A DNA stretch of 63,105 bases, the filler included, from Folioceros fuciformis (lineage: Eukaryota): the NCBI GenBank assembly GCA_049999805.1. It is 26 parts of 26 records of this genome, joined end to end, with 100 filler letters (N's around TTAATTAATTAA, not from the genome) between each part and the next. Parts side by side here need not be neighbours in the genome. Positions count along the whole stretch, not along the records: positions 1 to 6,536 come from JBNGIO010000001.1; 25 more parts are not named here. One strand, written 5' to 3'. Position 1 is the first letter of the stretch. Each line of letters starts with the position of its first letter. The translations under genes were made by a program, and so were the position numbers. The notes beneath the pieces are model-generated. The model was not told the DNA's origin. It made no database searches and saw nothing but the letters and a program-made list of their open reading frames with translations. Shown in pieces: positions 1 through 55,188 of the stretch.

Positions 1-3
1 ACA

Positions 4-16
4 TGGTATCAGAGCC
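4..16 (+). promoter_or_regulatory. Primer-binding site (tRNA-iMet) of E1
   Basis: TGGTATCAGAGCC directly after LTR-terminal CA. Confidence 0.95.
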
Positions 17-52
17 TTTTAAGGATCTGATGTTTTTCTCTCGTTATCGATA

Positions 53-682
53 ATGCCTCGGCACGGTGGATCTGTCGGTCAGGGGCGTGGCTCACGTTTT
101 TGCAGATGTGACAATTACACACAAGCCCCTAGGACAGCTCCAGCCGGACTCAACGCCCTTGCATATTCACTGGTGGGAAGAACTGGTCTTTGTAACCAAA
201 ATTGGTCAAGGGACAGAGAGCGTGCCGAACTACTTCGGCAACTCCAGCAAAGGGATTTTCAAATTAGAGATTACCAGGCCCGTGACCGTTTTTACAAAGA
301 TCAGAGGAGGGATAGGCAGCAGAGGCAATCTCGCATACCGCGGGCATCTGCTGCTACTACCAACTCCAACAGACCACCAAGACCGATTCGATATGTGGAT
401 ACAGTTCCTTCTTCTAGTGGAGGCTCCTCCTGCGATTGCCACAACGAGGCCGCCTCTAGATTGCTGAATGCTTCCCTCAAAGAGATTCTCAACACAACAG
501 AATCAATCAACACAAGAATTTTCGTCAACAACATGCAAGCTCAGGCAAATTTTGATGCTTTCAACGAGAAATGGACATTGAAGATAAAGGAAATCACTGA
601 TCACCTGCAAAGATTGGAGATTGCTGCTCCGATCATTCAGCAGGCTGCAGTGTTCCCACATCTTCCACCTTCCGCTGCCTGA
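53..682 (+). CDS. E1 5' accessory ORF0, 209 aa, unknown function (Arg-rich N-half, helical/coiled-coil-like C-terminus)
   Basis: ATG 49 nt after PBS start; homologous to 36132..36689 (NALAY, WSRDRERAELLRQ, KIKE..D.L.R.EI.AP...SAA*) with synonymous codon differences. Confidence 0.8.
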   Translation: MPRHGGSVGQGRGSRFCRCDNYTQAPRTAPAGLNALAYSLVGRTGLCNQNWSRDRERAELLRQLQQRDFQIRDYQARDRFYKDQRRDRQQRQSRIPRASAATTNSNRPPRPIRYVDTVPSSSGGSSCDCHNEAASRLLNASLKEILNTTESINTRIFVNNMQAQANFDAFNEKWTLKIKEITDHLQRLEIAAPIIQQAAVFPHLPPSAA

Positions 683-1307
683 GAGCAACGAGGTGTGAGG
701 CGTCGCGTGTGTCTTCACGCCTCTTCGCACAGCATCGCCAGCTGGCAGAACGGCACACCTGGAGCTTTGAGGTCAGAAGTGCTGTGTTCTCTCCAGGCGA
801 AGGGCGCCCTGCGTGATGTGAAGCGCCAGACTGCAACCGCCGCGACCTATTCCGAAGCCGCGTTATGGTTGCTGCCAGATGTACAGAAGCAGGGATTCTT
901 GCGACTGTTGAGGCAGAGATTGACACCTGCTGCAACCCCTTTTGTTGTTCTCATGAGTCCTGAAGAGACGTCTTTGCTCCTGCTTAACTTGAAACTGAAA
1001 CACCAACCGTCGTTTCTTGCATAAGTTAGGGCAAAACTGAAGCGATAAGCTGTTTATTGTTTTTTTTCGTCCACAGTCTGTATGCATAGTAACAGGAGTT
1101 ATTGACCTTGGACATCAGCACACCTGAGCTAGGATAGCTTTTCTATCCCTTCTCCTGTATGCTGTTGACCAGGTAACAGCTCCTGCATCTTATCTTGTTA
1201 GGTACACATCAGTAGATGCTGTAATTTTCATAGCAAAGTCTTAAGGGCATTTTGTACTCTGACCTGTGTAGTTTGAGCCATAGCTCACATTACCTCGTTA
1301 GCTTCAT

Positions 1308-4300
1308 ATGTCCACAGGACCCCTCTTATCTGTGGATACCTTAAGTAGCTTGTTTCAAGCACTTAGTCTTGGACAGTTTGTAACCGCTGTAATCCATAAC
1401 CAGAATACTCCAGCAATCATGTCTACAGTAGTTAAACCCACATACACGTCAGAGCTGAAAGAAAAAGATCGGTTTAACGGCTCACACTACGCTGTCTGGC
1501 GTATCCGGATGAAGTCCATCTTGTTAGCCCGACGTGTCTGGAAAATAGTGGATGGGACTACCCCCCAGCCCGACCCCAATGCAACTCCAGCACCATCTGC
1601 AGATCAGATCGCTGAGTGGGATGAATTGAACAACATTGCAATTGCTCTACTAATAGCAGGATTGCATACTGACCTCATTTCCCAGGTCGAGTTTCTCGAC
1701 AAAGCTTCTGAAATCTGGACACAACTGGAGAAGACATACAAGGCTACAAATGTACTGACCCTTGTTGGTGTTAAGTATGAGTTTTATGCCTTGAGGATGA
1801 AAGAGGGGGATAAGGTAGCGGCTTTCACAAGTAAATTCCGTCACCTTAGAGCCCAGATGGCTTCTCTATCTAGTACGAAGATGGAGGAAGTAGATGCTGT
1901 GGCTGAACTCCTCGCGAGACTCCCTTCATCGTACCAATCCTTTGTTACTAGCCAGAATGGACCCTTGAGAGCTGCGAATGTTGCTGCTGCTGCTGGAAGT
2001 GCTGCAAACATCACATTAGAGGATGTCATAGGCGCTTTGTATCAGGAGGAGCAAAGCCGGATGTTTTCTTCAAACACTTCTAAAATTAGAAAGGAGAAGG
2101 CATTATTCACAGCTCCCAAATCATTCAAAGGCAAAGGAAAAGTTGGAGGTAAACCTGGCCAAGGTTCTAATTCCGCTGGTCCAACTAAACGTCTAGGCAA
2201 CTGCAATTGGTGTGGTATAGCTGGACATTGGGCCAGGGAATGCAAGAAAAAGAAGGCAGGGGAACCTAAACGTGCTCCTAAAAGCTCAACTAGTTCTGCA
2301 ACTGTTGTGATTAAGGAGAAGACATCTGGTGACACCAAACCTGTGGTGAAGATCCTAACAATTTGCCTTGCTCGTTCCATATGTGATGAAGATGGTTGGT
2401 ACTTGGATTCTGGTGCCACATCTCACATCTGCAGAAGCAAAGATCAGTTTTATGTGCTGCAATCTAACAGAATGGCTGAAAGAGTGCTGTTGGGAGATGA
2501 ACGACATCAGTCCAGTCTCCAAATCCATGGCAGTGGCATGTGTAAATTCACTTTGCACGATGGATCCATTTTTACCCTGGAAAATGTACTCTATGTGCCA
2601 TCCATGGCGAAGAACTTGGTCTCTCTCAGCAAACTGATGCAGCTTCGAGCATATGACATGACAGCTAGTGAGGATACTTGTCTCTTCTACAAGAGGTCAG
2701 AGCCTTCAATGCTGGCATTTAAAGGTACATTAGATCATGATCTGTATAGACTTGATTTATGCACCCTCCGACACCAAGCTAGCCTTGTCTCTGAGAAGTT
2801 CCAACGTCTTGCTGTCCTGTGGCACGCACGGCTTGGTCACGTTAATAAGAGAAAACTAGTTGACATGTCACTGCAAGAGTGCCACCTTGAGCCTCTTCCA
2901 CAGATTTTCAAGGACTTACCTTCTTGTGAAGCCTGCATTGTTGCTAAACAGAAGGCCCATCCCTTTCCAGTTTCAGCAACCTACAGAGCATCAGTTGTCC
3001 TTGAGTTAGTTCATGCAGACATCTCAGGTAAGATACATGTCCCATCTCTGGGTGGTTCTATATATTACCTCTGCATCACTGACGACTATTCTCGGTATAC
3101 TTGGACGTTCCCGATGCACTTGAAGAGTGATACATTCGAGCTCTTCTGTGATTGGCTATTGACTGCTGAAAAACAGACTGGTTCTTTTGTCAAGTACCTT
3201 CGGACTGACAATGGAACAGAATTCGTCAATGAGGCTTTTGATACATTCCTGCAAGAGAGGGGGATCCAACGTCAACTTACAATCCCCTACACTCCGCAAC
3301 AGAATGGCGTAGCTGAAAGGAAAAATCAAACCTTGCTGGCCATGACACGGAGTATGTTATTGTGGGTTAACTTACCTCAAGAGTATTGGGCTGAAGCCAT
3401 TGTTGCTGCCACCTATATTCTCAATCGACTTTTTACAAGTTCAGTCCCCTCTCAGACTCCATATGAGGCTTTCTGGAAACGCAAACCCAGTTTGCTACAT
3501 CTACGCGTGTTTGGTTCACGTGCTTTTGCTCTCATCCCAGAGGAGAAGCGGAAGAAGCTGGATCCGAGAGCCCAAGCACTTGTTTTTGTCGGGTATAGTG
3601 AGCAGTCCAAAGCTTACAAACTTTATGACCCTGCAAATCAGCGCGTTGTGTTAGCACGTTCTGTCACATTTCTTGAGATTGACAGGCCCCTCATAATCGG
3701 CCACCCAGCAGCAGAGGGAGAAAATGACATACCTCAGCTATCAGACGACGCTGTTCATTTTCCTGATAATGACACTCATGACGAGGGAGATGATACAACT
3801 GTCCAACCTGCTGATATTGCACCTCCCCCTGCTCAACCAGTCCTCATACCCCCTCCACCTGTACAGCATCAGCCGGCAAATGTTGCTGTTAATCCTGACC
3901 CTGATCCATATGAGTATGAGGATGTACCTTTCCCTAATCCAGATGCTGATCTAGCAGCTGGAGATGATGATTATCAAATGGTCATGGAACATGTACCTGA
4001 GGACGATGAACAGCCTTTTCCTGTTCAAGATGAAGAGCCAGATCCTCCTCTACGACGTTCTACCAGAAATCGTCCTCCACCAGAACAATGGAAAGAGCCA
4101 CGTTATGAATCAATCGACTTTAGAACAGCATATGCCGACATCTGCAATTCTGCTTCTAGCACTATACACCTGGAGCCCAAGTCTTTAACAGAAGCATATT
4201 CAGGTCCTGAACGAGATAAGTGGAAGTTTGCAGTAGACGATGAATACAATTCTCTCGTCAAGAATAACACGTGGAAGTTAGTAGACCTCCCACCTAGCAG

Positions 4301-5759
4301 AAAACCTATCTCCTGCAAGTGGGTTTTCAAGTTAAAGTTGAATGCTAAGGGAGAGATTGCCAGATATAAAGCACGACTGGTTGCAAGGGGATTCACGCAA
4401 GTGGAAGGGCTAGACTATCAGGAAACATTCTCTCCTATTGTTAGGGCACAGTCAATTAGGATGATAATCGCCCTAGCAGCCGAGTTTGACCTGGACTTGC
4501 AGCAAATGGACGTATGCACAGCTTTCTTGTATGGTGCGTTAGATGAAGACCTTTACATGGTACAGCCAGAAGGGTATGAAGACTCTAAGTATCCAAAGAA
4601 AGTTCTGAAGCTACTGAAGACCATTTATGGTCTGAAACAGAGTGGCAGAGTCTGGTATTTCACTATACATGAGCACTTGATTAACAACTCATTTGTTCAA
4701 AGCTCAACTGATGGTACTGTTTACAAGCTAATGAAGGGAACTGCCTACGTCATTCTAGCACTGTATGTTGATGACGTGATTTTGGCCACTAATAGCCAAC
4801 CCTTGTTAGCTGAGGTCAAAGAAATGCTGAGCAACAAGTTTGAAATGAAGGATATCGGTGAGCTACGTTTCTGCCTTGGCATTCAGTTACTAAGGGTCAG
4901 ACCTGAGAAGTTGATCATCATTCATCAGTATCAATATGTTCAAGAACTGCTACATAAGTTTAAGCTTGAACATGCCCGGCCATCTACTACACCATATGCT
5001 ATAGGGACTAAGCTCACTAGTCTGCAATGTCCACAAGGTGCAGATGAGGTGAGGGAGATGGCACAGGTCCCTTACAGGCATGCCATAGGAAGCTTAATTT
5101 TTATAGCTAATTGGACAAGACCGGACATCCAGTATTCAGTCAGCACCCTATCCCAATTTCTGGAAAATTCAGGTCGAGTTCATTGGCAGGCAGCCAAAAG
5201 TGTCTTCCGCTACCTAAAGGGTACTCAGTCCTATGGACTAGCATACAGAAGCACTGGACAGCAGAAACTTACGCTGAAAGGCTTCACAGATGCTGATTGG
5301 GCATCAGACACAGAATCACGTCGAAGCCTTTCTACATATTGTTTTCTCCTCTCCTCAGCTGTCACCAACTGGAGCTGCAAGAAACAAACATCAGTTGCCC
5401 TCTCGTCAACTGAGGCCGAGTACAAGAGTCTGACAGAGGCCTCTAAGGAGGCAGAGTGGATACGAACCTTTTTGACAGATTTGGGGCAACAGCAAACAGA
5501 GCCAACCCCACTTCTATGTGACAACATGTCCGCTCTTGCGCTTGTTGCAAATCCTAAATTTCATGCACGCACGAAACACATTGAAATTCAACATCACTAT
5601 GTTAGAGATGTGGTTCATCGTGGTATTATAAAGGTCTGCCATGTTCCAACAAATGAAAATACGGCAGACATCCTTACAAAGGGCCTTCCCAAGCATCTAC
5701 ACTACCAGCATATGGAAGGCCTAGGGCTTATTGATTTCACAGCCTATGAGCAGAACTAA
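1308..5759 (+). CDS. gag-pol: Copia Gag-Pol polyprotein, intact, 1483 aa (alternative ATG at 1419)
   Basis: Zn knuckle CNWCGIAGHWAREC; protease WYLDSGAT; LWHARLGH; integrase DDYSR / RTDNGTEF / QQNGVAERKN; RT YKARLVARG and YVDD; RNase H DADWA, EAEY, CDN, KHI, ADILTK; Copia domain order. Confidence 0.97.
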   Translation: MSTGPLLSVDTLSSLFQALSLGQFVTAVIHNQNTPAIMSTVVKPTYTSELKEKDRFNGSHYAVWRIRMKSILLARRVWKIVDGTTPQPDPNATPAPSADQIAEWDELNNIAIALLIAGLHTDLISQVEFLDKASEIWTQLEKTYKATNVLTLVGVKYEFYALRMKEGDKVAAFTSKFRHLRAQMASLSSTKMEEVDAVAELLARLPSSYQSFVTSQNGPLRAANVAAAAGSAANITLEDVIGALYQEEQSRMFSSNTSKIRKEKALFTAPKSFKGKGKVGGKPGQGSNSAGPTKRLGNCNWCGIAGHWARECKKKKAGEPKRAPKSSTSSATVVIKEKTSGDTKPVVKILTICLARSICDEDGWYLDSGATSHICRSKDQFYVLQSNRMAERVLLGDERHQSSLQIHGSGMCKFTLHDGSIFTLENVLYVPSMAKNLVSLSKLMQLRAYDMTASEDTCLFYKRSEPSMLAFKGTLDHDLYRLDLCTLRHQASLVSEKFQRLAVLWHARLGHVNKRKLVDMSLQECHLEPLPQIFKDLPSCEACIVAKQKAHPFPVSATYRASVVLELVHADISGKIHVPSLGGSIYYLCITDDYSRYTWTFPMHLKSDTFELFCDWLLTAEKQTGSFVKYLRTDNGTEFVNEAFDTFLQERGIQRQLTIPYTPQQNGVAERKNQTLLAMTRSMLLWVNLPQEYWAEAIVAATYILNRLFTSSVPSQTPYEAFWKRKPSLLHLRVFGSRAFALIPEEKRKKLDPRAQALVFVGYSEQSKAYKLYDPANQRVVLARSVTFLEIDRPLIIGHPAAEGENDIPQLSDDAVHFPDNDTHDEGDDTTVQPADIAPPPAQPVLIPPPPVQHQPANVAVNPDPDPYEYEDVPFPNPDADLAAGDDDYQMVMEHVPEDDEQPFPVQDEEPDPPLRRSTRNRPPPEQWKEPRYESIDFRTAYADICNSASSTIHLEPKSLTEAYSGPERDKWKFAVDDEYNSLVKNNTWKLVDLPPSRKPISCKWVFKLKLNAKGEIARYKARLVARGFTQVEGLDYQETFSPIVRAQSIRMIIALAAEFDLDLQQMDVCTAFLYGALDEDLYMVQPEGYEDSKYPKKVLKLLKTIYGLKQSGRVWYFTIHEHLINNSFVQSSTDGTVYKLMKGTAYVILALYVDDVILATNSQPLLAEVKEMLSNKFEMKDIGELRFCLGIQLLRVRPEKLIIIHQYQYVQELLHKFKLEHARPSTTPYAIGTKLTSLQCPQGADEVREMAQVPYRHAIGSLIFIANWTRPDIQYSVSTLSQFLENSGRVHWQAAKSVFRYLKGTQSYGLAYRSTGQQKLTLKGFTDADWASDTESRRSLSTYCFLLSSAVTNWSCKKQTSVALSSTEAEYKSLTEASKEAEWIRTFLTDLGQQQTEPTPLLCDNMSALALVANPKFHARTKHIEIQHHYVRDVVHRGIIKVCHVPTNENTADILTKGLPKHLHYQHMEGLGLIDFTAYEQN

Positions 5760-5840
5760 GTAACTCTGGAAAATCCTGACAAACCAGGTTGGATGAAGCT
5801 CCAGTTCAGCATCTAATCACCTGGCTATTTGGTTCGGCCT

Positions 5841-6278
5841 TCACTCCTCCTCTCTCGGCATCACGTCCTTAATTCTGTCCAGCATTTCAATGGTGTCCTC
5901 CAGCTGGCTGATCAAGGTCTGTTTCCCTTCCTCCTCAATAGCGTACAAAGGCAGATTAGGAGTTTCCCCTCGCTTCACCTTTCCCCAGATTAGGTTCACG
6001 CTCAGTTCCATGTGATAGGCACCCAAGTGAATCCTCTGGCCCCAGCACGTCTTGTAGTCCCAGTCCCAGCCGCGGGCAGTAGCCTGCCTCTTGTCCAGCA
6101 GCTCGTAAACATTAGCTGGCAGAGTCGGTATGCTGTTCTTCCTGTTTTTCCTCGGTCGCGCAGCTCCCTTGTACGCCTTGCCACTTCGAGTCTTCATGGC
6201 GCACCGCAGGAGAAGATGTATGCACAGGAAACACAGCAGTTCAGCTCCGGCGATCAAAGAGGCAAGGTTGCTAGCCAT
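5841..6278 (-). CDS. E1 antisense accessory ORF, 145 aa, N-terminal hydrophobic (TM/signal-like) helix then basic region
   Basis: ATG in GCCATGG context; LASLIAGAELLCFLCIHLLL then MKTRSGKAY; counterparts at the same position in E2 and E5. Confidence 0.7.
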   Translation of the reverse strand: MASNLASLIAGAELLCFLCIHLLLRCAMKTRSGKAYKGAARPRKNRKNSIPTLPANVYELLDKRQATARGWDWDYKTCWGQRIHLGAYHMELSVNLIWGKVKRGETPNLPLYAIEEEGKQTLISQLEDTIEMLDRIKDVMPREEE

Positions 6279-6503
6279 GGCTCCAGCACTTGGTTTTATT
6301 CTTCTTCGGGCTGCCGCGGTACAGAGATTGTTGGGCGCTACTCAAGCACAGTGCCAGGAACGTGACTGTGAAGTTATGAGTTTGAGTCGTCCAGCTGCTA
6401 TGAGCAGCTTCACGTGGCATCGCGTACCGCTTTCGTTTACGAAGGGTTTGCTTTAGGATGATGCCGGGCTTGTTTATTGTTCGTTAGTTAAGCTTATGAG
6501 CTT

Positions 6504-6512
6504 AAGAGGGGG
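6504..6512 (+). promoter_or_regulatory. Polypurine tract of E1
   Basis: AAGAGGGGG immediately before TGTTACGGG (3' LTR start). Confidence 0.9.
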
Positions 6513-6536
6513 TGTTACGGGTTAAGCTGCCATATG

Positions 6537-6636
6537 NNNNNNNNNNNNNNNNNNNNNNNNNNNNNNNNNNNNNNNNNNNNTTAATTAATTAANNNNNNNN
6601 NNNNNNNNNNNNNNNNNNNNNNNNNNNNNNNNNNNN
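6537..6636. other. Artificial contig linker (N44-TTAATTAATTAA-N44). First of 25; others start at 7683, 8829, 9973, 11116, 12259, 13391, 14522, 15637, 16752, 17862, 19004, 20113, 30499, 35937, 42037, 43160, 44294, 45426, 50822, 52316, 53524, 54673, 55781, 61349
   Basis: Identical 100-nt spacer each time; TTAATTAATTAA gives stops in all six frames; many flanking pieces are about 1.0 kb in roughly descending size. Confidence 0.98.
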
Positions 6637-11800: not shown

Positions 11801-13490
11801 ACAAGGCTGGAATAAGAAGGAAGAAACTCTCTATCGAATGAAATTGCAATGTTGATACTAGAATAGACATAGATATGGGCATAACATTGTTAGACGTAGG
11901 CTTGCACATTTGCCTTAAGTGGGGCTAGAGGGTGCCTTTGCCATATATAGTGGACATTTTAAAGGGCAGGACCACAACATTCTATTGCGAACCCTCAAGC
12001 GGTGGCAGCAAACACTTTAGTTATAGTTCAAAAATGAAGTGGTAGTCCATGCGGCAAACCAACCCTAAACTATAGATTTCCAAATGGAGTAAATCTTGAT
12101 TGGCTAAGAATTTGGCTAGCATTGAGAATTGACAAGGGAACATGTTATAGCAGTAAAGAAGGTGGTCATAATCATGGCAGGGCAATAACGAGGGTGGCCC
12201 TAAACCTTAGGCCAACGAAGCGAAGAGAGCCCCAACCCAATGGTGGCACTAATTCCGANNNNNNNNNNNNNNNNNNNNNNNNNNNNNNNNNNNNNNNNNN
12301 NNTTAATTAATTAANNNNNNNNNNNNNNNNNNNNNNNNNNNNNNNNNNNNNNNNNNNNGTCCTCCTCTTGTGACTCAGCCTACCTGCATCCTCCGACTCG
12401 TCCCACAGCCCCTCTACTCGATCGCCCCGCTTCTTTCCAGCGCCCCTGTCCTCATCCACAACCTCAGAAAACCCGTCTTGCTCCTCGCCCCGACCTCGCC
12501 TCCCTGCCGGCTCCTTCTCGCTCTTACCTTTCCTCGACTTCCCATACCTATGCCGCCGATCCGACTCTTCCCACTCCCCTTCCCTACCCTTGTAGTACTC
12601 GGAGCCCTCCGAGATCTTCCGCCGTTTAGCGAGGTCGTGCTCCTTACTGCTGCCTTCGGGGCTATCCATGGATGCCCCTGCTCAAGCTGCTGCAGCAGAG
12701 TAGGGCAAAGTCCGCACGGACTGAAACAATGCCTCTTTCCAACAGGTCTCATCATCGTGCAGAGACCCGGGAGCCTCCATTTTCACCCGCACGTATCACA
12801 AATTCAGCAACCCGTAACCCCTAAACATTCCTAAATACTCCACCTCCTGCCACGATCTCCGCATGCCTGTTCTTTCACCCTGATAAAGGTTGGGCCAGCA
12901 TTCCCGGACTCTCCCAAACCCTAAAACCGGGCAATCACCAACTCCCGCTTCCTAAACCATGTTCCGCAGACAGGACACAGCATGCCCGAACGCTCCGCCA
13001 CAACCAATCCAACCAACAAACCCTTTCTGGACGTTTGCAAGCAGAGTAGGTTGCCAGACAAGACGCCGTCACCTCAGAGGCTGGACAGCCAAACTCCCAC
13101 AACCAATTTCCGCTGCTGCCTCCTGAACTTGAGCGCTCAAGACCAAGGCAAATCTACGGAACTCCAATTCGAAGTCCAGCCCCCATTCCCACAGCACACC
13201 CGATACCCAAGCGACTGTAGCTTCGCCCCAGACACAAGGTCAGACCAACCAGCGTGACGCTCCACCCGCAGCGCCCATTGCTAAAGTGGCCGCAGCAAGA
13301 TGCAACTTAACGGTGCAAAAATCACTCCATCTGCCGCCTAGAAAATATGAGAAATCAAGCAGCACAGCCAACAAAAGAGCTGTGCCGGGANNNNNNNNNN
13401 NNNNNNNNNNNNNNNNNNNNNNNNNNNNNNNNNNTTAATTAATTAANNNNNNNNNNNNNNNNNNNNNNNNNNNNNNNNNNNNNNNNNNNN

Positions 13491-14497
13491 CCGAGCTTGA
13501 GGTTCTCGTTGAAGAGACTGAAGAGGTAGACGTCGAGGCCCGCGTCTGGGCGGGCAGGGGTGGAGATGTTACCCTCCAGACGCTTCACCAGGTTGTAGAC
13601 GTAGGATTGCGCGTTCACCACATTGACGCCAACCTCATCGGCGTCTCCCGCCCAGGGCCACCCCGACTCGGACACCACCACGGCCAGGTTAACGATGCCG
13701 ATGTTGGCCAGAGCGTAGTACACGGCGTCCACCTGGGCGGAGAAGAGGTTGGAGTAGTGGATGCCGGTGCGGTTGTCCGTCTCGCCGTCGTTAGGTCCCT
13801 GTCCCAGCGCGTAGAGTCGGTCCTGTTCCGTGCGCTGCCCATCGCGGTAGGCGAAGTAGGGGTAGGCGTTCACCATGAAGCTGGAGCCGGTGTGCACCAG
13901 GAAGGCGGCCAGGGGCGTCAGGAGCCGGGCCAGGTAGGGCTTGAACACGGTGACGGAGGGCGGGAAGGACGGCGCCAGAATCTCCAGCGAGTGCGGGGTG
14001 GACACCTTGACGGCGGAGTCCAGCTTCAGGTTCACCAACGCCGTGTGGATGTTGGACATGGCGGGGAGGAGGAGAGTGCGCATGCTGTCCGAGGTCTCGT
14101 TGCTCGTCAGCACCTCGTTCCCTACTGCGATGACCCGGATGTCCGTGGCCGGCATGAAGGCGTGGACGTGCCGCTCCACCCACTCCTGCGCGTAGCCGCG
14201 CACTCCTCGGGAGAGGCACTCTATGACATCATTCGGCACTCCCACCACCACCTGAATCCCGCTGTTGGCCAGCGCCTTCAGCACCGCCGGGTTAGTGTCG
14301 TAGATCTTCACCTTCCGCACCGTGGTCTTGAGGATGAGCGCCACTGCCGCCTCGGGACTGGGCAGGTTATCGGCCACCGTGCCGTAGTTGATGCCAAGGC
14401 TACTTCCCGCCTCTGCACGTGAAACAATTCCGTCACCTTCTGCCTCTGTCATCCAAGAAATGCAGCACTCCGGCAACAACAAGGCAACGCAACTCAA
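13491..14497 (-). CDS. Glucan endo-1,3-beta-glucosidase (GH17), partial, 3' end truncated
   Basis: LGINYGTVADNLPSP, VKIYD, IAVGNEV (acid/base Glu), FMVNAYPYF, VVVSESGWP (nucleophile Glu), YLFSLFNENLK; exact 5' start uncertain. Confidence 0.95.
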
Positions 14498-22318: not shown

Positions 22319-24275
22319 TGGTATCAGAGCAGGATCCCTTCCCTCTGATCATTGATCTCATCCATACCAGCCACACCATAATGCCCCGCCAATTGCGACC
22401 TAGTGCCTGGTGATCAGAGGCTTAAGGCGCCTTGCAAAGAAGGCAAAGAAAAAAAAAAGCCAAATACCTTCAATGGCAAAGGTCCAACAGAGAGATTCAA
22501 TACCTCAAAGAGGCACAGGAAAACCTTTGTCATTATGGCTGGTTCAGGACCTGCGGTGTCCTACTTTTTAATTGGCGAAGAACTACTCCTCATAGGTCAC
22601 CTAGAACATAATGATTATGACTTCTCATACATCCAGGTAGAATACCTCTTCCATCAACAATGAAAAGGGAATTTACCACATGTCTAGACATCATCGCTCC
22701 CATCTCACTCACAGAAAGTAATCTCTCACCTCAGTTCTCTATGTAGACAGCACAACCTCTTCATGCTCCCATCTGCGAAGGAAATTCAAGAAACACAAAC
22801 CTCAATAATACATAAAATCAACAGTCTAGACGAATCACATTCCCACATCAAATTCCCTCAACGAACTTACAGAGTTGTCCTCGCCATGCAGTTAGATGTA
22901 TCTAGTATAATTAGAAACACTGTCTTCAGCGTTTAGAACGCCACCAACACCATGTCCTCCCACACCAGCCTGTCCAAAGAAGACAAGTTTGATGGTTAGT
23001 AGCAAACCTTTCCAACATGGAAATGTAGAATAAAAATATCCTAAAGGAGAGAAAATTATGGGGCTACGTAGAAGGCATAGGCAACCCCCCTGTTCCCATA
23101 GCCTACCCAACCAACGGAACAACAAAAGAAAAGGAGGACTAGGAAGACGCTAATCAACAAGCACACAACGTGATCATCCAGGCTATGCGTCATGGGAATG
23201 TCCAACAGATCGAAAACACAGACACTAGACACTGCAGCAGCTGCCTGGCAGCAATTGCACGATATAATATTATGCACACCGTACACACTTCTTTGGCCTG
23301 CGCACACAAGAGGGAGGTCTCGTTGACCAACATACTATGCACTTCCGTAGCTGGTCAACAAAATTCAAGGCCACTGGATTTGCCCTTACCAAAGATCTTT
23401 CTGCTGCCCTACTCCTTTCCACGCTGCCCGAGTCCTGGGTTAGTGTTGTGTAGTCCCTTCAAGGAGTAACCCCCCTGACAGTCAACAAAGTTATTAGCTC
23501 TATGCTAACAGAAGAAGCAAGACGCAAATTATCCAACACTTTTTATGCTGGAGAATCTTCCTCCAGCGCCTATTTTACAGGCAAAAGATTTAGGGGTAGG
23601 GGCCCTGGCATGGGAGGACAACCACATCCCCGTGGACCGGGCAATTATTAGGGTACTTACCATAGTCGAGGAAGAGGATACTACAATCCCCCTTGGAAAC
23701 CCGTCTGCGGGTACTGTAAAATTCTAGGACATACCTATGAGGAATGTCGGAAAAGACAAGCTGCAAACAACCCACAACGTCGACGTGAGCAGATAGGACA
23801 ACTCGCCCTCACAATAGAAAGACATACAAGAGCATATTTAACACACACACCTCAATCATCCCAAGATCAGCTAGATCAACCAAGTTCCTCTAATCCAACA
23901 GCTTATGTGGCATCCTGCCTTGCACCTCAGGGACATCACACATGGTACATTGACTCAGGTGCCTCCCAACACATGACATGGAACCTAGAATACTTCACAG
24001 AGATCAACCCTACACAGCCACCTCAGTATGTTAGTCTAGGAGATGACTCCAGACACAAAATACAGGGTCATGGGTCCTTCAAAATTAACCTTAAAACAAC
24101 ATCTACCTTGCACATATCAGGCGTTCTTTATGTACCAGGGCTTACAAAGAACCTTTTCTCAGTTAGAAAGGTAGATGAATCAAGCTATTACGTATGCTTC
24201 GGGGATGGTCACTGCATCATTGAAACCCCGCAAAGGGAACTCCTTGCTACAGGAGCCTTACAAAACAACGACTTG
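22319..24275 (+). pseudogene. Decayed Ty1/Copia 5' half (PBS, accessory-ORF remnants, gag, protease) related to E3, interrupted by a Gypsy insertion
   Basis: CA then TGGTATCAGAGC at 22319; ILKERKLWGYVEG; HTWYIDSGASQHMT and VLYVPGLTKNLFSVRKVD closely match E3; many frameshifts and stops. Confidence 0.88.
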
Positions 24276-35708: not shown

Positions 35709-36131
35709 TGTCACTAACCCATGCTTGCTGCCATCGACATTCTCCAGAGAGAATTCTCCAGATGCATTTGTGACAGCAGCGCAACCGAGATAGCAACGCT
35801 CAGGCTGACGAAGTGAAGACGCCGTGCAAGCCTGCCACCAGAGAAGTGGCCATGGCTTCGAACCAGATCTAAAATGCAGACACAACGCAGCGTGACTGGA
35901 AAAATTCACCAAGGGATGGAGAAAATCCCAGCGCCGNNNNNNNNNNNNNNNNNNNNNNNNNNNNNNNNNNNNNNNNNNNNTTAATTAATTAANNNNNNNN
36001 NNNNNNNNNNNNNNNNNNNNNNNNNNNNNNNNNNNNCTCTCTCGCCCTCCGGCTCTCACCTCCCGCTACATGCGAACTTAACATGGTATCAGAGCCATCT
36101 TGGTTCTGATGATTCCTCATCGTCGCTAAGA

Positions 36132-36689
36132 ATGCCTCGGCGAGGCGGTTCCGCCAACAAGGGGCGCGGATCACATTTCTACAAGTGCGACAACTCGCCC
36201 CGCTTTCCTAAGACGGTTCCGGCTGAAATCAACGCCTTGGCGTATTATCTTGCTGGTGGAGCAGGCTCCCACAGCCCATTCTGGTCCCGCGATCGGGAAC
36301 GGGCTGAATTGCTTCGGCAATTCTACAGACAGGACCGAAGCCCTGGCGACCACAAATCGGAGCGGCGGCAGCGACAATTCTACCCCCACCCTGCATTGAA
36401 TTCCTTCCGCGACCTGCCCAGGGAGGTGCGCCCAGGATATTCATTACATGCCAGCGGCGGGGTTCCTGTACGCGCTCCCCACGGCCAATTCAACGACCAC
36501 TTCGAGGAGACCTCCACCACCTCAGAATCCGTCCACGTTAGAACTCTTATCAGTGAAATGACGAACCTAATGGACGGATTGACGATGAAGATCAAGGAAT
36601 TGGCTGATTACCTGCTTCGATTTGAGATCTCTGCACCCAGTATCTCGCAGGCATCAGCTCTTCCTGACCACACACATTCCGCTGCCTGA
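36132..36689 (+). CDS. E2 5' accessory ORF0, 185 aa, homologue of 53..682
   Basis: ATG 48 nt after PBS start; 39/63 identical N-terminal residues with E1 ORF0; same SAA-TGA end. Confidence 0.8.
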   Translation: MPRRGGSANKGRGSHFYKCDNSPRFPKTVPAEINALAYYLAGGAGSHSPFWSRDRERAELLRQFYRQDRSPGDHKSERRQRQFYPHPALNSFRDLPREVRPGYSLHASGGVPVRAPHGQFNDHFEETSTTSESVHVRTLISEMTNLMDGLTMKIKELADYLLRFEISAPSISQASALPDHTHSAA

Positions 36690-36878
36690 GAGCTGCGAGG
36701 CGCGAAGCGCCGCGTTTGCCCTCGCGACTTTTCGGCTTGTGGAGACAGCTGCCTGAGCGGCATGTCCACGTTGCCGAAGGTGTGAGAGCGAGGCCAGAAA
36801 CGCCGCGCAACCATAGGTACAGAGTCGCTGTCGTTTGGCGGTGCCCCATGCCAGCGGACACCTCTAACTGAAAACCCG

Positions 36879-39800
36879 TTGACTCGAAGGGGAAGGAGAG
36901 TAACAGCAGTTAGCAGAGTTGGGTCAGTCATACCTTCGTCACCCCTGCGTATGTCAGACAGCTCTGAGTCCCCTGACGTCGGCAGCGACGTTCCGGAGTC
37001 AGACCTCAACAGCAATCCTCCCCCATCGGCAATTGCTGTGGAGCGCTTGCAGTCACTCAATTCCATTGCTCTTGCTTTCTTGATAAACGGGCTTGATGAG
37101 GACCTCGTACCTACAGTGGAATTCCATACGAAAGCACACCAGGTTTGGGATCAGCTTGCAAGTACGTATCAAGTTAAAAACCTTATGTCCCTTTGTGCCG
37201 TCAGGCAGGAATTCTATACCTTGAAGATGAGAGAGGGGGAAAAGATGGCTGCACACATCACCAAATTTCGTCAGCTCCGCTCTCAGTTGCTGAGTATGGG
37301 CACGAAAATGGATGAGTTGGATGCAGCTGCTCACCTCCTCACGACGTTGCCACCTTCTTACCAAGGCTTCATCACTACACAGAACATTCCCTATTTGACT
37401 GCCTCGGCTGGCCGTACCTCCACTTATACAGTTGACATCCTTATCGGAGCCCTTTTTCAGGAGGAACAAGCCAGGAGTCATTCTTCAGGGAGCTCTCGCT
37501 CCAAGGGAGATAAGATTCTGTCAGCTCGGCACACACCTAACAAAGGCAAGAGCAAATTTCAGAAACCTGATTCAAGCCCTGCTAACCCTCCCAAAAGGAC
37601 AGGGACTTGTAACTGGTGTGGAATTGCTGGGCACTGGGCCCGTGAGTGTAAAAAGAAGAGGGCTGGCGAACCGCAGCGAACATCCAAGACTTCGGCTAGC
37701 GTTGCTAAGGAGAAATCCAGTGATACTAAGAACGTGGTCAAGATACTCACAGTTTGCTTGACTAGTTCTTGTTCGGACACAGAAAGCTGGTACCTGGATT
37801 CTGGTGCCACGGCTCACATTTGTCGAAACAAGAATCACTTCACCTCTCTGACCCCTTGTTGTGAGAATGACAAGGTGTTCCTTGGAGATGAACAGCTCGA
37901 TAGCAGTTTGCAAGTCAAAGGACAAGGCAAGGTTACTTTCCGATTGAAGGACGGTTCAGATCTTACTCTTGAACGCGTTCTGTACGTACCAGCCATGGCG
38001 AAGAATCTACTGTCCATGAGTCAGCTCCTGAAGCTGCGGACGTTTGAGATGCAAGCCACCGGTGATACGTGCACCTTCTACAGGAAGGTTGCCCCAGACA
38101 CTTGCTTTTTCAAGGGTTTCCTTGATAATGATCTGTATTGCCTTGATCTGCTGTCTGTAAGGAATGCCACCGTGCATAGCACTGGATTAGCTAACCTGGA
38201 CACCAAGCAGCTGGCTATGTTATGGCACGCAAGACTCGGACATCCCAACAAACAGAAGTTGCTGGACATGTCCGTCAAACAATGTTTTAGGGAACCCCTT
38301 CCCCGTTGTTTCAAGGACTTACCGTCCTGTGAGGCGTGCATAATAGCCAAGCAAAAGGAACACCCCTTTCCTTCCACTCCAGCATACAGAGCTACCTCTG
38401 CCTTAGGCTTGGTCCATGCGGACATCTCTGGAAGGATACAGGTGCCGTCTATAGGTGGTTCCAATTACTACCTTACCTTAACGGACGACTACAGCTGTTA
38501 CACTTGGACATTCCCTATGCAGAGGAAGAACGATGTCTTCGACATCTTCAAAGAATGGCTTCCTGCAGTACAACGCCAAACGGGTTTGCTGTTAAAGTAC
38601 CTGCGTACAGATAATGGCACCGAGTTTGTTAATGATGCCTTTGATGAATACCTAGCTGCGGAGGGGATTCAGCGGCAACTTACCGTTCCTTATACACCCC
38701 AGCAAAATGGGGTTTCTGAGAGGAAGAATCAGTCCTTGTTGGCCATGACCCGGAGCATGTTGCTCTGGTCCGGCCTCCCTCAAGCGTATTGGGCAGAAGC
38801 CATTTGTGCAGCAACATACATTCTGAACAGAATTCTTACGAGCTCTGTCCCGAATCAAACACCCTATGAGGTCTTCCATAAGAGGAAACCAAGTCTGCTG
38901 CACATGAGAGTTTTTGGTTCCCGAGCATATGCGTTTATTCCTGCGAAGAAACGCCAGAAGTTAGACCTGAGAGCTCAAGCCCTTGTTTTTGTAGGGTACA
39001 GTGAGCAGTCTAAGGCTTATCGACTGTATGACCCGACTCTCAGGAAGATGTCACTCGCACGGAGTGTCACCTTCATTGAGCCCCATTCTCCATTGCTCAC
39101 ACATGCTCCGCAGACAGAGGGAGCTTCGGACATACCTGAGGAGACAGAGGGAGGATCTACGTACCCTGTGAATGAGGGACAGGTCACTTATCAGATGTAT
39201 CCTCAGGATGCCGAACCTCAGGATGCCGAACCCCAGGATGCCGAACTCCAGGATGCTGAACCCTTGGACGCTGTCTTGCCGACACCCGATTTGGTCGCAC
39301 CTCTTCCCGCTGAACCAGACCCTCAGGATGACCCGGACCTCATCCCTTTTGACGACCCAGGTGCTCCTGTCCAAGTTGCTGCGGACTTACCAGATGCTGC
39401 TCTTTTCGACGAGCCGGATCCAGCACCCATTATGGATGAGCATCTACCGGAGGTCATTGAAACTCCACCAATCCCTCCTGCAGTAGTTGCCCGCGACACC
39501 GAGGAAGTGGTACCTCGCCGTTCTGACCGCCACCGACCACCACCTGATCAATGGGCTGAACCGCGTTACCAATCTATTGACTTCCGCCATCGGGCAGCCC
39601 CAGCTACAGCACACACTGCTCCGTCGGCCATCCCGGATGAGCCACGCACTTTGGCCGAGGCTTACAACGGACCTGACAGTAAGCAGTGGCGTGCGGCCGT
39701 CGAAGACGAGTACCAGTCTCTGATTAAAAACAAGACCTGGACTCTTGTGGACTTGCCACCCGGCCGCAAACCCATTTCATGTAAATGGGTCTTCAAACAC

Positions 39801-41231
39801 AAACTGAATGCTGAGGGCGAGATCGCCCGGTACAAGGCCCGTCTCGTGGCCCGTGGTTTTACCCAGGTGGAGGGTCTGGACTATCAGGAGACATTCTCCC
39901 CTGTCGTCCGGTCCCAATCCATACGCATGCTGTTGGCTCTGGCTGCAGAATTCGACCTTGACTTATGGCAGATGGATGTCTGCACAGCATACCTTTATGG
40001 GTCTCTGGATGAAGAACTGTACATGCAACAGCCGGAAGGTTACGTTAGTAAGCAGCACCCCAAGCAGGTTCTTAAACTTTTAAAATGCATCTACGGACTG
40101 AAGCAATCTGGTAGGGTTTGGTATTTTACCATCCACGTCTATCTGTTGGACTTGTCTTTTGTTCAAAGTGCCGCAGATACCAATGTTTACCGGCTGACTA
40201 GGGGCACAGCTTTCGTCATAGTTGCCTTGTATGTCGATGATGTCATTCTGGTCACAAACAGTAAAACTCTGTTAGATGAAGTCAAGCAAATGCTCAGCGA
40301 CAGGTTCGAAATGAAAGACATTGGTGATCTAAAGTTCTGTTTAGGGATACAGATCCTCCGAGTTCGTGAGGAGGGTCTTCTGGTTATCCACCAGCATAAA
40401 TACATTCGGGAAATCCTGCATAAGCTCAAGATGGATCAAGCCCGTCCAGCCACCACTCCTTCAGCTGTGGGCATCAAGTTAACAACTGATCAGTGCCCTA
40501 CCACTAAGGAAGCTAAGCAGGATATGGCGGATGTACCTTACAGGCATGCTGTTGGCAGTCTTTTGTTTGTGGCAAACTGGACTCGCCCAGACATACAGTA
40601 TGCAGTGAGCACCGCTTCTCAGTTTACGGAAAACCCTGGACGCCCCCACTGGTCAGCCGTAAAAAGAATCTTCCGTTACCTGCAGGGCACACACACATAT
40701 GGGTTATTCTATAAACGAAGTGGCACAGGCACATTCCATCTATCTGGCTTCACGGATGCTGACTGGGGTTCTGACAGTGACGGACGTCGCAGTTTATCTA
40801 CTTACTGTTTCTTGCTGGCCAATGCGTCTGTAAGTTGGAGCTGCAAGAAACAAACTACAATAGCACTGTCCTCATCGGAGGCTGAATACAAATCTCTTAC
40901 AGAAGCCTCCAAGGAGGCAGAGTGGGCTCGATAGTTTCTGGCCGACCTTGGTCATCCTCAACGTGCTCCCACTCCTATTCTCTGTGACAACACTGGTGCT
41001 CTTGACCTTGTGGCAAATCCCCGATATCATGCTCGTACAAAGCATATCGAAATCCAACACCACTATATTCGTGATGTATCTGCACGAGGCGTGGTGAGAG
41101 TGGGTTATGTTGATACCGAGCTGAATACTGCCGACATTTTTACTAAGCCACTACCTAAGCTCAAGCACTATACACACATGACGGGACTTGGCCTGCAGGA
41201 TTACTCTGCTCATTTTGATTTAGTGCCATGA
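36879..41231 (+). pseudogene. gag-pol: E2 Gag-Pol, apparently lacking the Gag N-terminus, with a premature TAG (40932-40934) in RNase H
   Basis: Similarity to E1 starts only at LNSIALAFLINGL; all PR, IN and RT motifs present; the frame continues after TAG through KHIEIQHH / ADIFTK to 41231. Confidence 0.92.
39201..39263 (+). repeat. 15-bp in-frame tandem repeat x4 (PQDAE) in the IN-RT linker
   Basis: CCTCAGGATGCCGAA variants. Confidence 0.9.
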
Positions 41232-41413
41232 CTCTAGCTACTGCAGCTGGATATGAACACTTATCTGGGGGGGGGGAGGGTGGGAACCTAAGTTCCCTAA
41301 TTGCTGCTCCTCTCCAGACACCGTCTTTCTGCAGCCCACTTCCACAGTCTGTCAGTGTTTTTCCTCGCCGTCAAGCTGGTGCAGGTGGATGAAGCTTCAC
41401 TTACCTGATCTAA

Positions 41414-41839
41414 TCACTCTGCTCCAGCCTCCACAGTACTCCCTTCCATCCCTCTGGTGGCCGGCACGAACTCCATTGGCAAGGGAATCTTGGCAGCCAT
41501 TTGCAGCAGTTCGCGGGCGTGCTCCGTGCTGGTGTCTTCAGGTCGCTTGAGGACTTCTTCGGCACGCCTAACTCTGGCTATGGCGACCTCCATTGACCAC
41601 TTGCCCTCCCAGCCGGCAAACCTGATCAAATGTTCCACCCTCACAGGCGTCCAGCTCTGGCCTACCCTCTTCTTCTCTTCTGGTGGCGGCGCTGCTCTCC
41701 TTGCCCTTGCTTTTTTCTCTTCTGGGGGTCTTGCACAACTGTGAAGATCCAATCCATATCTACGACCACTGCGCGTTGCCATAATCCAGCGGTGGATCCC
41801 TATGCTCAGTGTAGCTAGCGCAACGAGGAGAGCCGTCAC
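41414..41839 (-). CDS. E2 antisense accessory ORF (GTG start with hydrophobic leader; first ATG at 41782, MATRSGRRY)
   Basis: Same position as in E1 and E5; motifs MxTRSG.xY, LIRFAGWE, KIPLP. Confidence 0.65.
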   Translation of the reverse strand: MTALLVALATLSIGIHRWIMATRSGRRYGLDLHSCARPPEEKKARARRAAPPPEEKKRVGQSWTPVRVEHLIRFAGWEGKWSMEVAIARVRRAEEVLKRPEDTSTEHARELLQMAAKIPLPMEFVPATRGMEGSTVEAGAE

Positions 41840-45616: not shown

Positions 45617-45796
45617 ATGGATTCCGCTGCTCCTCCCGCTAGTACCTGTGAGACCTGCAAGTCAGAGTCCTGCATCAGAAGCCTGTCCCATGAACAATTT
45701 CGCGCAGCCATTGCAGCACTCAGGATTGCACTCACCCGGTTTGGGAGCATGGCGGACACATTCTTGGCGGAGGCAGTCAACCACTACTACTCCTAG
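45617..45796 (+). CDS. E4 small 5' ORF, 59 aa, with CxxC-x4-C-x5-H
   Basis: ATG 6 nt after the PBS; no second copy for validation. Confidence 0.35.
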   Translation: MDSAAPPASTCETCKSESCIRSLSHEQFRAAIAALRIALTRFGSMADTFLAEAVNHYYS

Positions 45797-52624: not shown

Positions 52625-55188
52625 CGCTGGCCGCCTGCCAACTTCCAAATCCAGCCCGACTGGTCGAGCAGTCAGGCCAAACTGGCTGTGCCGACCTGTT
52701 TGCAGCTCGCTAGGCCGACTGGTCGAGCAGCCCCCAACTAGCCATCCGCCTACCTAGCTCTAGCGAACCCCCCATCAGGCTGCTACTTGCTTGTGCTCCG
52801 CCGCCGCCCGCCTAGCCTACACGACTGCCTGCTAGGCAACCTGTCCGATCTGGCCCAGCCCCCGGCCTAGGTCTGGCCATGCGGCCTGCCAGCAGCCAGG
52901 CCGCCTACCTGGCTGCTGCCTACTCCTCCCTTGGCCAACTGGCTGCCTGGCCTCGCCCAGGCCAAGTTAGCGGACCCGTGTGGCTAGCCGAACAGCCGGT
53001 CCATTAGTCACCCGACTACCCTCTAGCCTACTGACCCTGAGGCGACACTCCCCCTACCTGGCCATCTGGCTGGCTAACTTTCCCCGAACCTGATGCTCCC
53101 ACAACCTTAGGCCCTCCTTGCGTGACTGCCTGCTCTCGGGCCCGTCTGTCCCAGGCACCGCTATCCCCGTCTCCCGCTTCCACCAGCATCGACTAGAGAG
53201 AGCCCCGCTTGCCTTCCATGACGTCCTAGGGTTTACTATTCCTCCGTCACCTTACCCCAGGAACCAGAGCCCACGTCCTATCTACCACACAACCTACCTA
53301 CCCTATCGACTCACCATCATTCTAGCTACTATTCTAACCTAATCTCCCCACCTTTCCTCTACAACACTCCCTCACAAATCCAAAAAAAAAGAAAACCTAT
53401 CCTTTCCCAGGGGTCTGTTCAGCATGTGGAGTCCACACTTACCTTAGGGAAGCCTAGAATGTTGGACGGACCTTAGAGATGCTTAAAGATGGACTCAACA
53501 AGATAAGATCATCCACATATATGNNNNNNNNNNNNNNNNNNNNNNNNNNNNNNNNNNNNNNNNNNNNTTAATTAATTAANNNNNNNNNNNNNNNNNNNNN
53601 NNNNNNNNNNNNNNNNNNNNNNNCTGCTCGACCCTTACGCCCTGCGCCGTCTGTCCCGTCGTCCTGGCGCCTTCGCCTTCCTCAGCCACTTTACGCTTCA
53701 CGTTACTCCCGCTCCCCACGCTTCCGGATACTGGACAAAGCTCCCCTTTCTCTAGGGTTTTTATACCCTGCCTGCTTTCTCTTCTTACCGCCCATCGGGC
53801 TACCACCAGTCGTTCCTCCGGCGACGGTTGCCCTGCCGGCTACCGTCACCCCGTCGTCTCGGCCCTTACTTTGGCCTACCTTAATGTTCTAAAGGACTCG
53901 AGGGTCACGGAGGCACTCGTTGCTTCCTCCTTCCTCCTTGTCCTGATCTCGAGTACACCCCAAACCCCGAAGCCCAAGGTGGACTTTGGGTATAAACACC
54001 CTGGTATACACACCTTTGGCTTACTAAGCCGATTCGCCTGTCCCTTCACAAAAAGAATCACAACCTGCTCATTCCGTCGCTCAAAATGGGGATTCCGAAA
54101 GTTTTTTTCGTTCACACCCGGCCTCGCCTATTGTGGAGTGAAATGTTGTGTCCGGGGACACCGCGAGGTCCACATTCACCCTCTATGTCGTTGTACTCGT
54201 AGGATTCGCTCCTAAGGAAATGATTTGTGCTAAGTAATGTGGATTTCTACTACTATTGACTCTTACCTAGGTTAGGACTCCCCTACTACCACCCCTACTA
54301 CCTACTAGCTCCCTACCTCTACCCCCAGGTAGCCCAGCTACCACGAACCCTACTCTACACTCCAGTTCCTACTCCACAACCGCGATCACTGGTTCCGCAA
54401 CCGGTAGTGGTCTCCACGATTGTGGTGGGTCCCACCCAATGCCCTAACTAATATTTTCCGGCACATGCACCGCCAAGGGTTTCCACCACGGGTTTCTGCC
54501 CCAGGAGCTTCCCGACTAACAAATCTGGTCTTATTGGATGCCCTCCACACATGCAAATGCTAATCCTTGGGGAACAAGACCCCGCAGATCAGCCACACTT
54601 CTCCACACACACACACACACACAAACTATGGTGCACACTCTTTCTTCACAAGCCTAGTTCTAGAGGTCTCCANNNNNNNNNNNNNNNNNNNNNNNNNNNN
54701 NNNNNNNNNNNNNNNNTTAATTAATTAANNNNNNNNNNNNNNNNNNNNNNNNNNNNNNNNNNNNNNNNNNNNGCCGGTCCTGTGCAGGCGTCCCTGCTGA
54801 GTTACAGCGACCTCGTCGACGGGAAGGCATTATAGGCTAATTCTGTCTTGCAGGCAGGAGAGCATGGCCTTCGACAGAGCTCAGCCAGCATCAAGAGATG
54901 ATGTTGAGTTGCGTTGAAGTCTCTGTTGCTCTTCCTGGAAAATCAGATTAGTCTGAAAAAGATAGGATTCTTATTTCTTCATCCTGCTAGGCAGCGGAAG
55001 GACATATGATGGTAATACTAAATCAAGGCTTGTATATGCACGCCTATTTAGGCGCATTGACGATACGCAGTGTACGTTATGGTAAGAGCCATTGATTGTA
55101 TAAGAATACCAATCTGATAGCCCTAGGTATCGATATCTGAAGGCTTGGCCACGAGTATCAGAAGCCATCACAATTGTTCATGATTCAT

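Follow-up and report, generated by a model that had tools for sequence, protein, structure and literature searches.

ORF0, a probable accessory gene between primer binding site and gag in two Ty1/copia retrotransposon families of a land plant

ORF0 in two Ty1/copia elements

The DNA analyzed here (63105 bases from Folioceros fuciformis, assembly GCA_049999805.1; referred to as the window in the following) is a chain of about 26 contigs of 1.0–10.3 kb and not a single locus. The contigs are separated by N44-TTAATTAATTAA-N44 spacers (e.g., 6537-6636 and 35937-36036), and features lying across a spacer are consequently without genomic linkage. Two separate contigs of this one assembly (1-6536 and 36037-42036) harbor long terminal repeat (LTR) retrotransposons, designated E1 and E2, which both feature the Ty1/copia domain order gag-protease-integrase-RVT_2 according to Pfam. 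Both contain an additional open reading frame (ORF), termed ORF0, on the same strand as gag-pol and between their primer binding site (PBS) and gag, which starts at 1419 in E1 and at 36951 in E2. As judged from its sequence, ORF0 very probably represents a real accessory gene under purifying selection.

In E1, ORF0 starts 49 nucleotides (nt) from the first base of the PBS (53 vs 4) and in E2 48 nt from it (36132 vs 36084), as already reported in a first-pass annotation of this DNA. Over their full length, the two products are identical at 82 of 210 positions (39%; 26 gap positions; BLASTP, E 1e-39), while the N-terminal 63 residues align without gaps, with the previously counted 39 identical residues being reproduced in our alignment, and both copies terminate in SAA-TGA. 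The conserved WSRDRERAELLRQ block is encoded by different codons in E1 (TGG TCA AGG GAC AGA GAG CGT GCC GAA CTA) and E2 (TGG TCC CGC GAT CGG GAA CGG GCT GAA TTG), exactly as claimed before. Upon base shuffling of the ORF0 body, the frame stayed open in 3 of 100000 cases for E1 and in 135 of 100000 for E2, and the longest ATG-initiated ORF in the remaining five frames of the region comprises 77 (E1) or 71 amino acids (aa) (E2). ORF0 is homologous in E1 and E2 and was inherited from a common ancestor before synonymous saturation.

The product of 21–24 kDa is basic, with an isoelectric point (pI) of 10.2 in E1 and 9.5 in E2; the N-terminal 100 residues, including a GRGS stretch, reach a pI of 10–11.5, and the C-terminal third is neutral to acidic. 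Structure prediction, one of the checks proposed in the first-pass annotation, returned helices at residues 31-42, 50-93 and 128-198 of the E1 product (AlphaFold2, two-sequence alignment), the second of which is rich in Arg, Asp, Glu and Gln. The C-terminal part, which had been described as an amphipathic helix, is thus recovered as a predicted helix (predicted local distance difference test, pLDDT, 60–78), but its hydrophobic moment is not above that of shuffles, which reached it in 352 of 500 and 88 of 500 cases. The complex prediction for two copies of residues 125-209 yielded a score of 0.05.

Moreover, no domain was recognized in ORF0, which agrees with the earlier reading: Pfam gave no family at E≤1 save MIC19_MIC25 (E 0.099; 13.5 bits vs a cut-off of 33), and there was no Pfam match to Athila ORF-1 (PF03078), the plant mobile domain (PF10536) or Transposase_28 (PF04195). 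Protein homologs of E1 ORF0 at near lengths were not found, and a profile of both ORF0 sequences had no match at E≤0.001 among 1.84 billion representatives. None of 595 pattern matches in metagenome contigs and none of 36 in viral contigs was confirmed; PDB sequences held no match and the ESM Atlas no usable one.

Table 1. Features of the window (positions along the whole stretch).
Feature	Position	Strand	Remarks
E1 PBS TGGTATCAGAGC, tRNA-iMet type	4..15	+	exact match
E1 upstream ORF, 16 codons	3..53	+	begins at LTR-end/PBS ATG; TAA overlaps ORF0 ATG (TAATG)
E1 ORF0	53..682	+	209 codons + TGA
E1 ORF0, N-terminal conserved block	53..241	+	63 codons ungapped vs E2; clear purifying selection
E1 ORF0, long predicted helix	434..646	+	residues 128-198; AlphaFold2, pLDDT 60-78
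E1 nucleotide-conserved block across ORF0 stop	666..727	+	79% identical to E2 36673-36734 (blastn)
TTCCGCTGC box, E1	670..678	+	+666 from PBS; overlaps ORF0 codons S-A-A; candidate second tRNA-iMet contact
E1 gag-pol	1419..5759	+	frame open from 1308; DUF4219, copia gag, protease barrel, integrase, RVT_2
E2 chain of three upstream ORFs, 3/8/6 codons	36070..36129	+	last ends 2 nt before ORF0 ATG
E2 PBS TGGTATCAGAGC	36084..36095	+	exact match; hairpin z -2.46
E2 ORF0	36132..36689	+	185 codons + TGA
TTCCGCTGC box, E2	36677..36685	+	+593 from PBS; overlaps last ORF0 codons
E2 gag-pol, defective	36951..41213	+	in-frame stop at 40932; DUF4219 absent
Predicted PBS hairpins	7-32; 36087-36111; 55198-55150	+; +; -	z -0.71; -2.46; -3.98
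TTCCGCTGC box, third copia family (E3)	45622..45630	+	+23; 10 nt after end of PBS 45599-45610
TTCCGCTGC box, fourth copia family	54991..54999	-	+202 from start of PBS 55201-55190
TTCCGCTGC, fifth match	13108-13116	+	unrelated context
Leader ORF, E3	46118-46708	+	196 aa
Leader ORF, further copia leader	22381-22413	+	10 aa then stop
Leader ORF, further copia leader	54830-54773	-	cut by contig end
Glycosyl hydrolase family 17 (GH17) gene	13439-14452	-	337 codons, uninterrupted

Selection on ORF0 and further copies

Within the ungapped 63 codons (189 nt), E1 and E2 show 70 differences, of which 14, 19 and 37 fall on codon positions 1, 2 and 3, respectively (chi-square p 0.002). A permutation null, which retained the number and kind of the differences and randomized their placement in 20000 trials, gave 25.7 identical residues (standard deviation 2.7, maximum 37); the observed 39 were reached in none of the trials, and the control frames +1 and +2 stayed under their nulls with 17 and 22 identical residues. 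In line with the codon-based check suggested earlier, the proportion of nonsynonymous differences (pN) lies far under that of the saturated synonymous ones (pS) in this N-terminal part of the E1/E2 pair (Nei-Gojobori, pN 0.226, pS 0.80). For the whole ORF0 (185 aligned codons), the values are 0.36 and 0.74, and for gag-pol (1381 codons) 0.26 and 0.81, with a pN of 0.35 in two capsid windows, 0.18–0.22 in the integrase and 0.12–0.16 in the reverse transcriptase. The N-terminus of ORF0 is constrained as strongly as protease and integrase and more than the capsid. Since silent sites between E1 and E2 are saturated, both families are old. Furthermore, an unconstrained MAFFT DNA alignment placed five indels within ORF0, all of them multiples of three (18, 12, 9, 15 and 18 nt), as opposed to one of five among the small indels outside ORF0 (1, 14, 3, 7 and 4 nt).

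Apart from E1 and E2, further copies were found in Logan contigs of public DNA runs with the same organism label, which were mapped on positions 1-1500 of the window at 80% likeness. One 2348-nt contig in each of the two runs X1 and X2 matches E1 without gaps and with 8 differences in 1500 nt; four of these lie in ORF0 (two synonymous, I112V and Y114S) and none introduces a stop. This contig may correspond to the E1 locus itself and is therefore not independent. Six further pieces from X1/X2, 80–90% alike, cover 1-112, 200-267 and 476-711, falling on the N-terminal block, on the WSRDRERAELLRQ block and on the C-terminal helix but not on the variable middle; the sole gap among them, at place 17, is located in the leader outside ORF0. 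Among the variants listed, each scored singly, 29 fall within ORF0, 14 of them synonymous and 15 not, with a distribution of 7/7/15 over the codon positions and without any stop.

Three loose contig ends were additionally read by hand in the ORF0 frame. The first gives A-A-L-K-E-I-C-I-T-I against A-S-L-K-E-I-L-N-T-T in E1 (residues 140-149), where 6 of 10 residues are identical, four of these six via different codons. The second reads R-L-L-V-N-N-L-Q-T (R-I-F-V-N-N-M-Q-A in E1) and the third V-F-P-N-H-A-P-S-A-T followed by TG where the E1 stop lies; changes in all three are conservative or synonymous. At least three additional diverged ORF0 copies with the same conserved ends are present in the DNA-run contigs, and all three sequences that span ORF0 completely keep it open, namely E1, E2 and the contig from X1/X2 (perhaps the same locus as E1). 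The identity of 39 of 63 residues, the in-frame indels, the saturated pS and the further copies, taken together, are what makes ORF0 very probably a real accessory gene.

The leader around ORF0 and its genomic context

The common SAA-TGA end of both copies, previously listed with the conserved protein features, is indeed shared but lies inside a nucleotide motif, the 9-mer TTCCGCTGC, and it does not count as protein evidence because two other copia families carry TTCCGCTGC behind their PBS as well, in other reading frames; in the fourth family it belongs to a small ORF other than ORF0 and is read in another frame. The window contains five exact matches to this 9-mer vs 0.53 expected (reached in 0 of 100 shuffles), and four of them are located 23–666 nt 3′ of a PBS for the initiator methionine tRNA (tRNA-iMet), on the same strand and in four copia families. 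At the ORF0 stop, the motif is part of a 62-nt block, the DNA identity of which (79%) exceeds that of the N-terminal coding block (63%). The entire ORF0 lies between PBS and TTCCGCTGC box in E1 and E2.

The 10-nt core of the E1 box, CTTCCGCTGC, corresponds in reverse complement to GCAGCGGAAG, a D-arm stretch of human tRNA-iMet (PMC12775451), the tRNA against which complementarity was checked; the GCAGCGGAAG stretch is also seen in a primer of PMC5087684. No tRNA genes were found in the window, and a T-arm-complement motif (printed human tRNA, up to two mismatches) had 17 matches vs 12.2 expected, a number reached in 11 of 100 shuffles. Plant initiator tRNA carries the same D-arm stretch, which the tRNA of the host may share, and the TTCCGCTGC box is therefore a candidate for a second contact to the primer tRNA.

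The PBS TGGTATCAGAGC itself, which we take to be of the tRNA-Met type, occurs seven times in the window vs 0.39 expected and is directly preceded by ACA in E1 and E2 (LTR end ...CA). This type is also given for the motif in the REXdb survey (Neumann et al., 2019, PMC6317226). In three copia leaders, structure prediction pairs the PBS with a UCUGAU stretch downstream of it, which would sequester the PBS in a hairpin (Table 1); the pairing predicted for E1, with 23-32, is not significant at a z of -0.71.

The ORF0 AUG had been regarded as the first of the transcript, which does not hold: ATGs precede it at 3 and 30 in E1, forming one upstream ORF (uORF), and at 36070, 36083 and 36109 in E2, where each uORF ends 0–2 nt before the next ATG (TAA-C-ATG, TGATG, TAA-GA-ATG). 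ORF0 is accordingly just one possible main product of full-length RNA, the role inferred for it before. The tiny uORFs, starting from the LTR end or PBS, constitute a relay of stops and starts leading up to the AUG of ORF0. Most of R-U5 (the LTR leader) lies outside both contigs, with that of E1 beginning 3 nt 5′ of its PBS and that of E2 retaining only the last 47 nt of the 5′ LTR.

Further downstream, the Pfam order in E1 is DUF4219, Retrotran_gag_2, Pol_BBD, gag_pre-integrs, rve, SH3_retrovirus and RVT_2, and E2 shows the same order minus DUF4219. E2 is not an intact element but a defective one, featuring an in-frame stop at 40932 and lacking the first gag residues; its gag match starts at position 30 of the Retrotran_gag_2 profile, with the first ~29 positions absent. 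Altogether, E2 is without the first ~43 gag residues including DUF4219, apparently by deletion of a stretch matching E1 ~945-1560, and its ORF0 is still open. The AT-rich spacer between ORF0 and gag of E1, which E2 lacks, contains a small dispersed repeat, a 78-nt piece (1112-1189, + strand) that recurs in DNA-run contigs with unlike flanks and at similar depth.

Three other copia leaders contain an ORF whose product starts with MPR or MPS and continues with basic residues; its ATG shares the a-a-ATG-cc context of ORF0. One of these elements, E3 (45599-47200, + strand), has ~1.5 kb from PBS to the DUF4219 of gag; its gag frame, open from 46644, includes an N-terminal extension of 184 residues that is rich in Ser and Pro and overlaps the 196-aa leader ORF by 65 nt. 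This 196-aa ORF was tried as an ORF0 homolog and rejected (hhalign probability 1%), and no homolog of it was found in the databases. On a separate contig, a GH17 glucanase gene has its top database matches in a lycophyte and mosses at only ~50% identity, which points to a land plant host from a lineage thinly represented in protein databases.

Interpretation and relation to known accessory ORFs

We consider it likely, with a probability of roughly 60%, that ORF0 is an element-encoded accessory gene kept by selection on its protein, the product of which probably acts on the element's own RNA. In this reading, a Ty1/copia lineage of a land plant has an additional ORF on the sense strand, placed between PBS and gag. 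Its product would consist of a Gly/Arg-rich and probably disordered N-terminus, an Arg/Asp/Glu/Gln-rich helix opening with the invariant WSRDRERAELLRQ, a linker that evolves fast and one long helix at the C-terminus. In composition, the product is probably a basic, helical, RNA-binding accessory protein. Its most likely role would be binding of the element RNA as chaperone or as packaging or priming cofactor; alternatively, it could serve as regulator switching between translation and packaging. The AUG of ORF0 would probably be reached by reinitiation after the tiny uORFs ending 0–2 nt upstream, and ribosomes translating ORF0 would cross RNA bridged by the primer tRNA via PBS and D-arm box.

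In LINE-1, the first ORF of the retroelement RNA likewise encodes a basic protein with a long helix, ORF1p, which acts on its own RNA. It serves as a working analogy only, as no sequence or fold similarity to ORF0 was found and the element class differs. 

A more far-reaching and, in our view, rather improbable version would combine ORF0 and the TTCCGCTGC box into one module, in which tRNA-iMet bridges PBS (3′ end) and box (D arm) and thereby loops out the ~600-nt ORF0, uORF-relayed ribosomes strip or block the bridge, and the ORF0 protein, as a new class of retroelement RNA-binding factor, feeds back on translation vs priming and packaging. If this were true, the MPR/MPS-basic leader ORFs of the three other copia families would represent highly divergent forms of this one ancient gene.

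Several points weigh against an accessory gene with the proposed function. Conservation of the protein as opposed to the DNA, as stated in the first-pass annotation, holds for the N-terminal third (pN 0.226 vs pS 0.80; 0/20000) and is weak for the C-terminal 37 ungapped codons, where 19 of 37 residues are identical vs a null of 15.6, reached in 1444 of 20000 trials (p ~0.07), with differences distributed 12/8/16 over the codon positions. The middle (residues 64-130), already described as variable, barely aligns between E1 and E2, and the pair alone demonstrates purifying selection solely for the first third of ORF0. The codon tests are based on two complete sequences, one of them (E2) from a defective copy; the runs X1 and X2 represent one sample, possibly the source of the window assembly itself, and the variant counts derived from them are supportive only. 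The AlphaFold2 model is poor (mean pLDDT 55.9) and, with neither homolog nor domain nor confident fold at hand, function is inferred from composition and position alone, for an ORF known here as DNA sequence. Moreover, the 740 nt from the ORF0 stop to the gag ATG in E1 contain eight ATGs, which offers no ready account of gag translation from the same RNA; a spliced or internally started mRNA for gag of E1 would be the obvious possibility.

Among the alternative explanations, ORF0 could be the first exon or an alternative N-terminus of a larger product formed by splicing, frameshifting or readthrough into gag or the -1 frame. Past the ORF0 stop, translation in the -1 frame gives TFRCLRATRCEASRVSSRLFAQHRQLAERH for E1 and TFRCLRAARREAPRLPSRLFGLWRQLPERH for E2, and over 30 codons (667-756; 36674-36763) 21 residues are identical vs a null of 14.5, reached in 9 of 20000 trials, with no identity excess in the other five frames. 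This similarity may stem from an RNA element, or else from a stretch read by frameshifting or joined by splicing. Frame 0 of E1 remains open for 113 further codons past the TGA, splice-site-like strings were read by eye in the AT-rich E1 945-1400, and the eight ATGs before gag would also fit a larger product. However, the TGA is equally placed in both elements and frame 0 of E2 closes 31 codons past it, while in the -1 frame E2 carries a stop shortly before this stretch (36665-36667), a 14-nt indel breaks that frame after ~30 codons and, as read from the sequence after the ORF0 stop, neither element holds an ATG or a canonical X_XXY_YYZ slippery site there. With 79% identity as DNA, the block is equally well explained by a cis-acting RNA element, for which RNAalifold predicts small hairpins, two sequences being too few for covariation. 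Overall, a larger product appears unlikely.

We further considered a transduced host gene fragment. LTR retrotransposons are described to capture host sequence in a review on additional ORFs (Vicient and Casacuberta, 2020, PMC7264820), and in a host lineage as thinly covered as this one (GH17 matches at ~50%) a lineage-specific parent gene could be missed. Yet the 1.84 billion representatives and all other searches were empty, and ORF0 occupies the same position in two saturated families and exists in further diverged copies, whereas transduced genes, according to the same review, typically occur in one or few copies; such an origin is therefore very unlikely. Least probable of all is a non-coding leader kept for RNA signals such as packaging, dimerization or priming, with the ORF as by-product or peptide-independent long uORF, since, despite the nucleotide elements present (PBS hairpin, TTCCGCTGC box, 62-nt block) and the little protein-level signal of the middle and C-terminal parts in the pair, 37 of 63 third positions differ while residues are kept (0/20000, control frames negative), all ORF0 indels are in frame, openness is far beyond that of shuffles, and a peptide-independent uORF would be short with an unconserved peptide, in contrast to 185–209 codons with 39 of 63 residues kept at synonymous saturation.

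As an accessory gene, ORF0 is a previously undescribed, unrelated addition to a known class. Plant LTR retrotransposons are described to carry additional or extra ORFs (eORFs), one class of which lies in sense orientation upstream of gag (eORF-5′F; Neumann et al., 2019, PMC6317226; Vicient and Casacuberta, 2020, PMC7264820). The second of these publications deals, in the accessible part, chiefly with 3′ ORFs and states that additional ORFs are present in all or most copies of a family. Like the eORF-5′F class, ORF0 is encoded on the sense strand between 5′ LTR/PBS and gag, is dissimilar to gag-pol, lacks a known domain within a heterogeneous group and may be kept among family copies. An ORF upstream of gag is likewise reported for Ogre elements (PMC2533021); Ogre/Tat, however, belong to Ty3/gypsy and the host element of ORF0 to Ty1/copia. 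The REXdb survey, as far as its accessible text goes, counts 582 copia elements whose eORF reaches 250 codons or more, divided among 45 unrelated groups, names only the SIRE 3′ ORF as lineage-typical in copia and doubts eORF function (PMC6317226). With 185–209 codons, ORF0 falls below this threshold, a survey cut-off and not a biological one, and would consequently not be listed there; moreover, in contrast to the doubted function of eORFs, selection at the protein level is evident for ORF0 across two saturated families. SIRE eORF-3′F (“env-like”) resembles ORF0 as a fast-evolving copia accessory ORF (PMC6317226), but is located downstream of pol, whereas ORF0 directly follows the PBS upstream of gag and shows no transmembrane-type features in its model. 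Our literature search found no described ORF between PBS and gag in Ty1/copia, although additional files 1, 4 and 5 of PMC6317226, which contain the copia eORF groups, may hold cases.

For the TTCCGCTGC box, the closest counterpart is the multipartite PBS of yeast Ty1 and Ty3, which pairs with the T and D arms of tRNA-iMet and whose parts are far apart in Ty3 (PMC4974528). Both share a short same-strand box 3′ of the PBS, which for TTCCGCTGC is a candidate, judged against the human tRNA only, for complementarity to an internal arm of tRNA-iMet; the TTCCGCTGC box differs in its variable distance to the PBS (23–666 nt), with a whole ORF in between in E1 and E2. A literature search for a second primer-tRNA contact in plants found none. 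This box, which overlaps ORF0, suggests that plant copia elements may use such a contact like yeast Ty1/Ty3.

Additional ORFs are common in plant LTR retrotransposons, but catalogues list mostly those longer than 250 codons and those of Ty3/gypsy or SIRE elements, whereas ORF0 is shorter, located upstream of gag and part of a Ty1/copia lineage in a non-seed-plant-like host, for which, unlike for most eORFs, direct evidence of purifying selection is now at hand. In this context, a constraint comparable to that of protease and integrase makes ORF0 a good candidate for a functional test of such genes.

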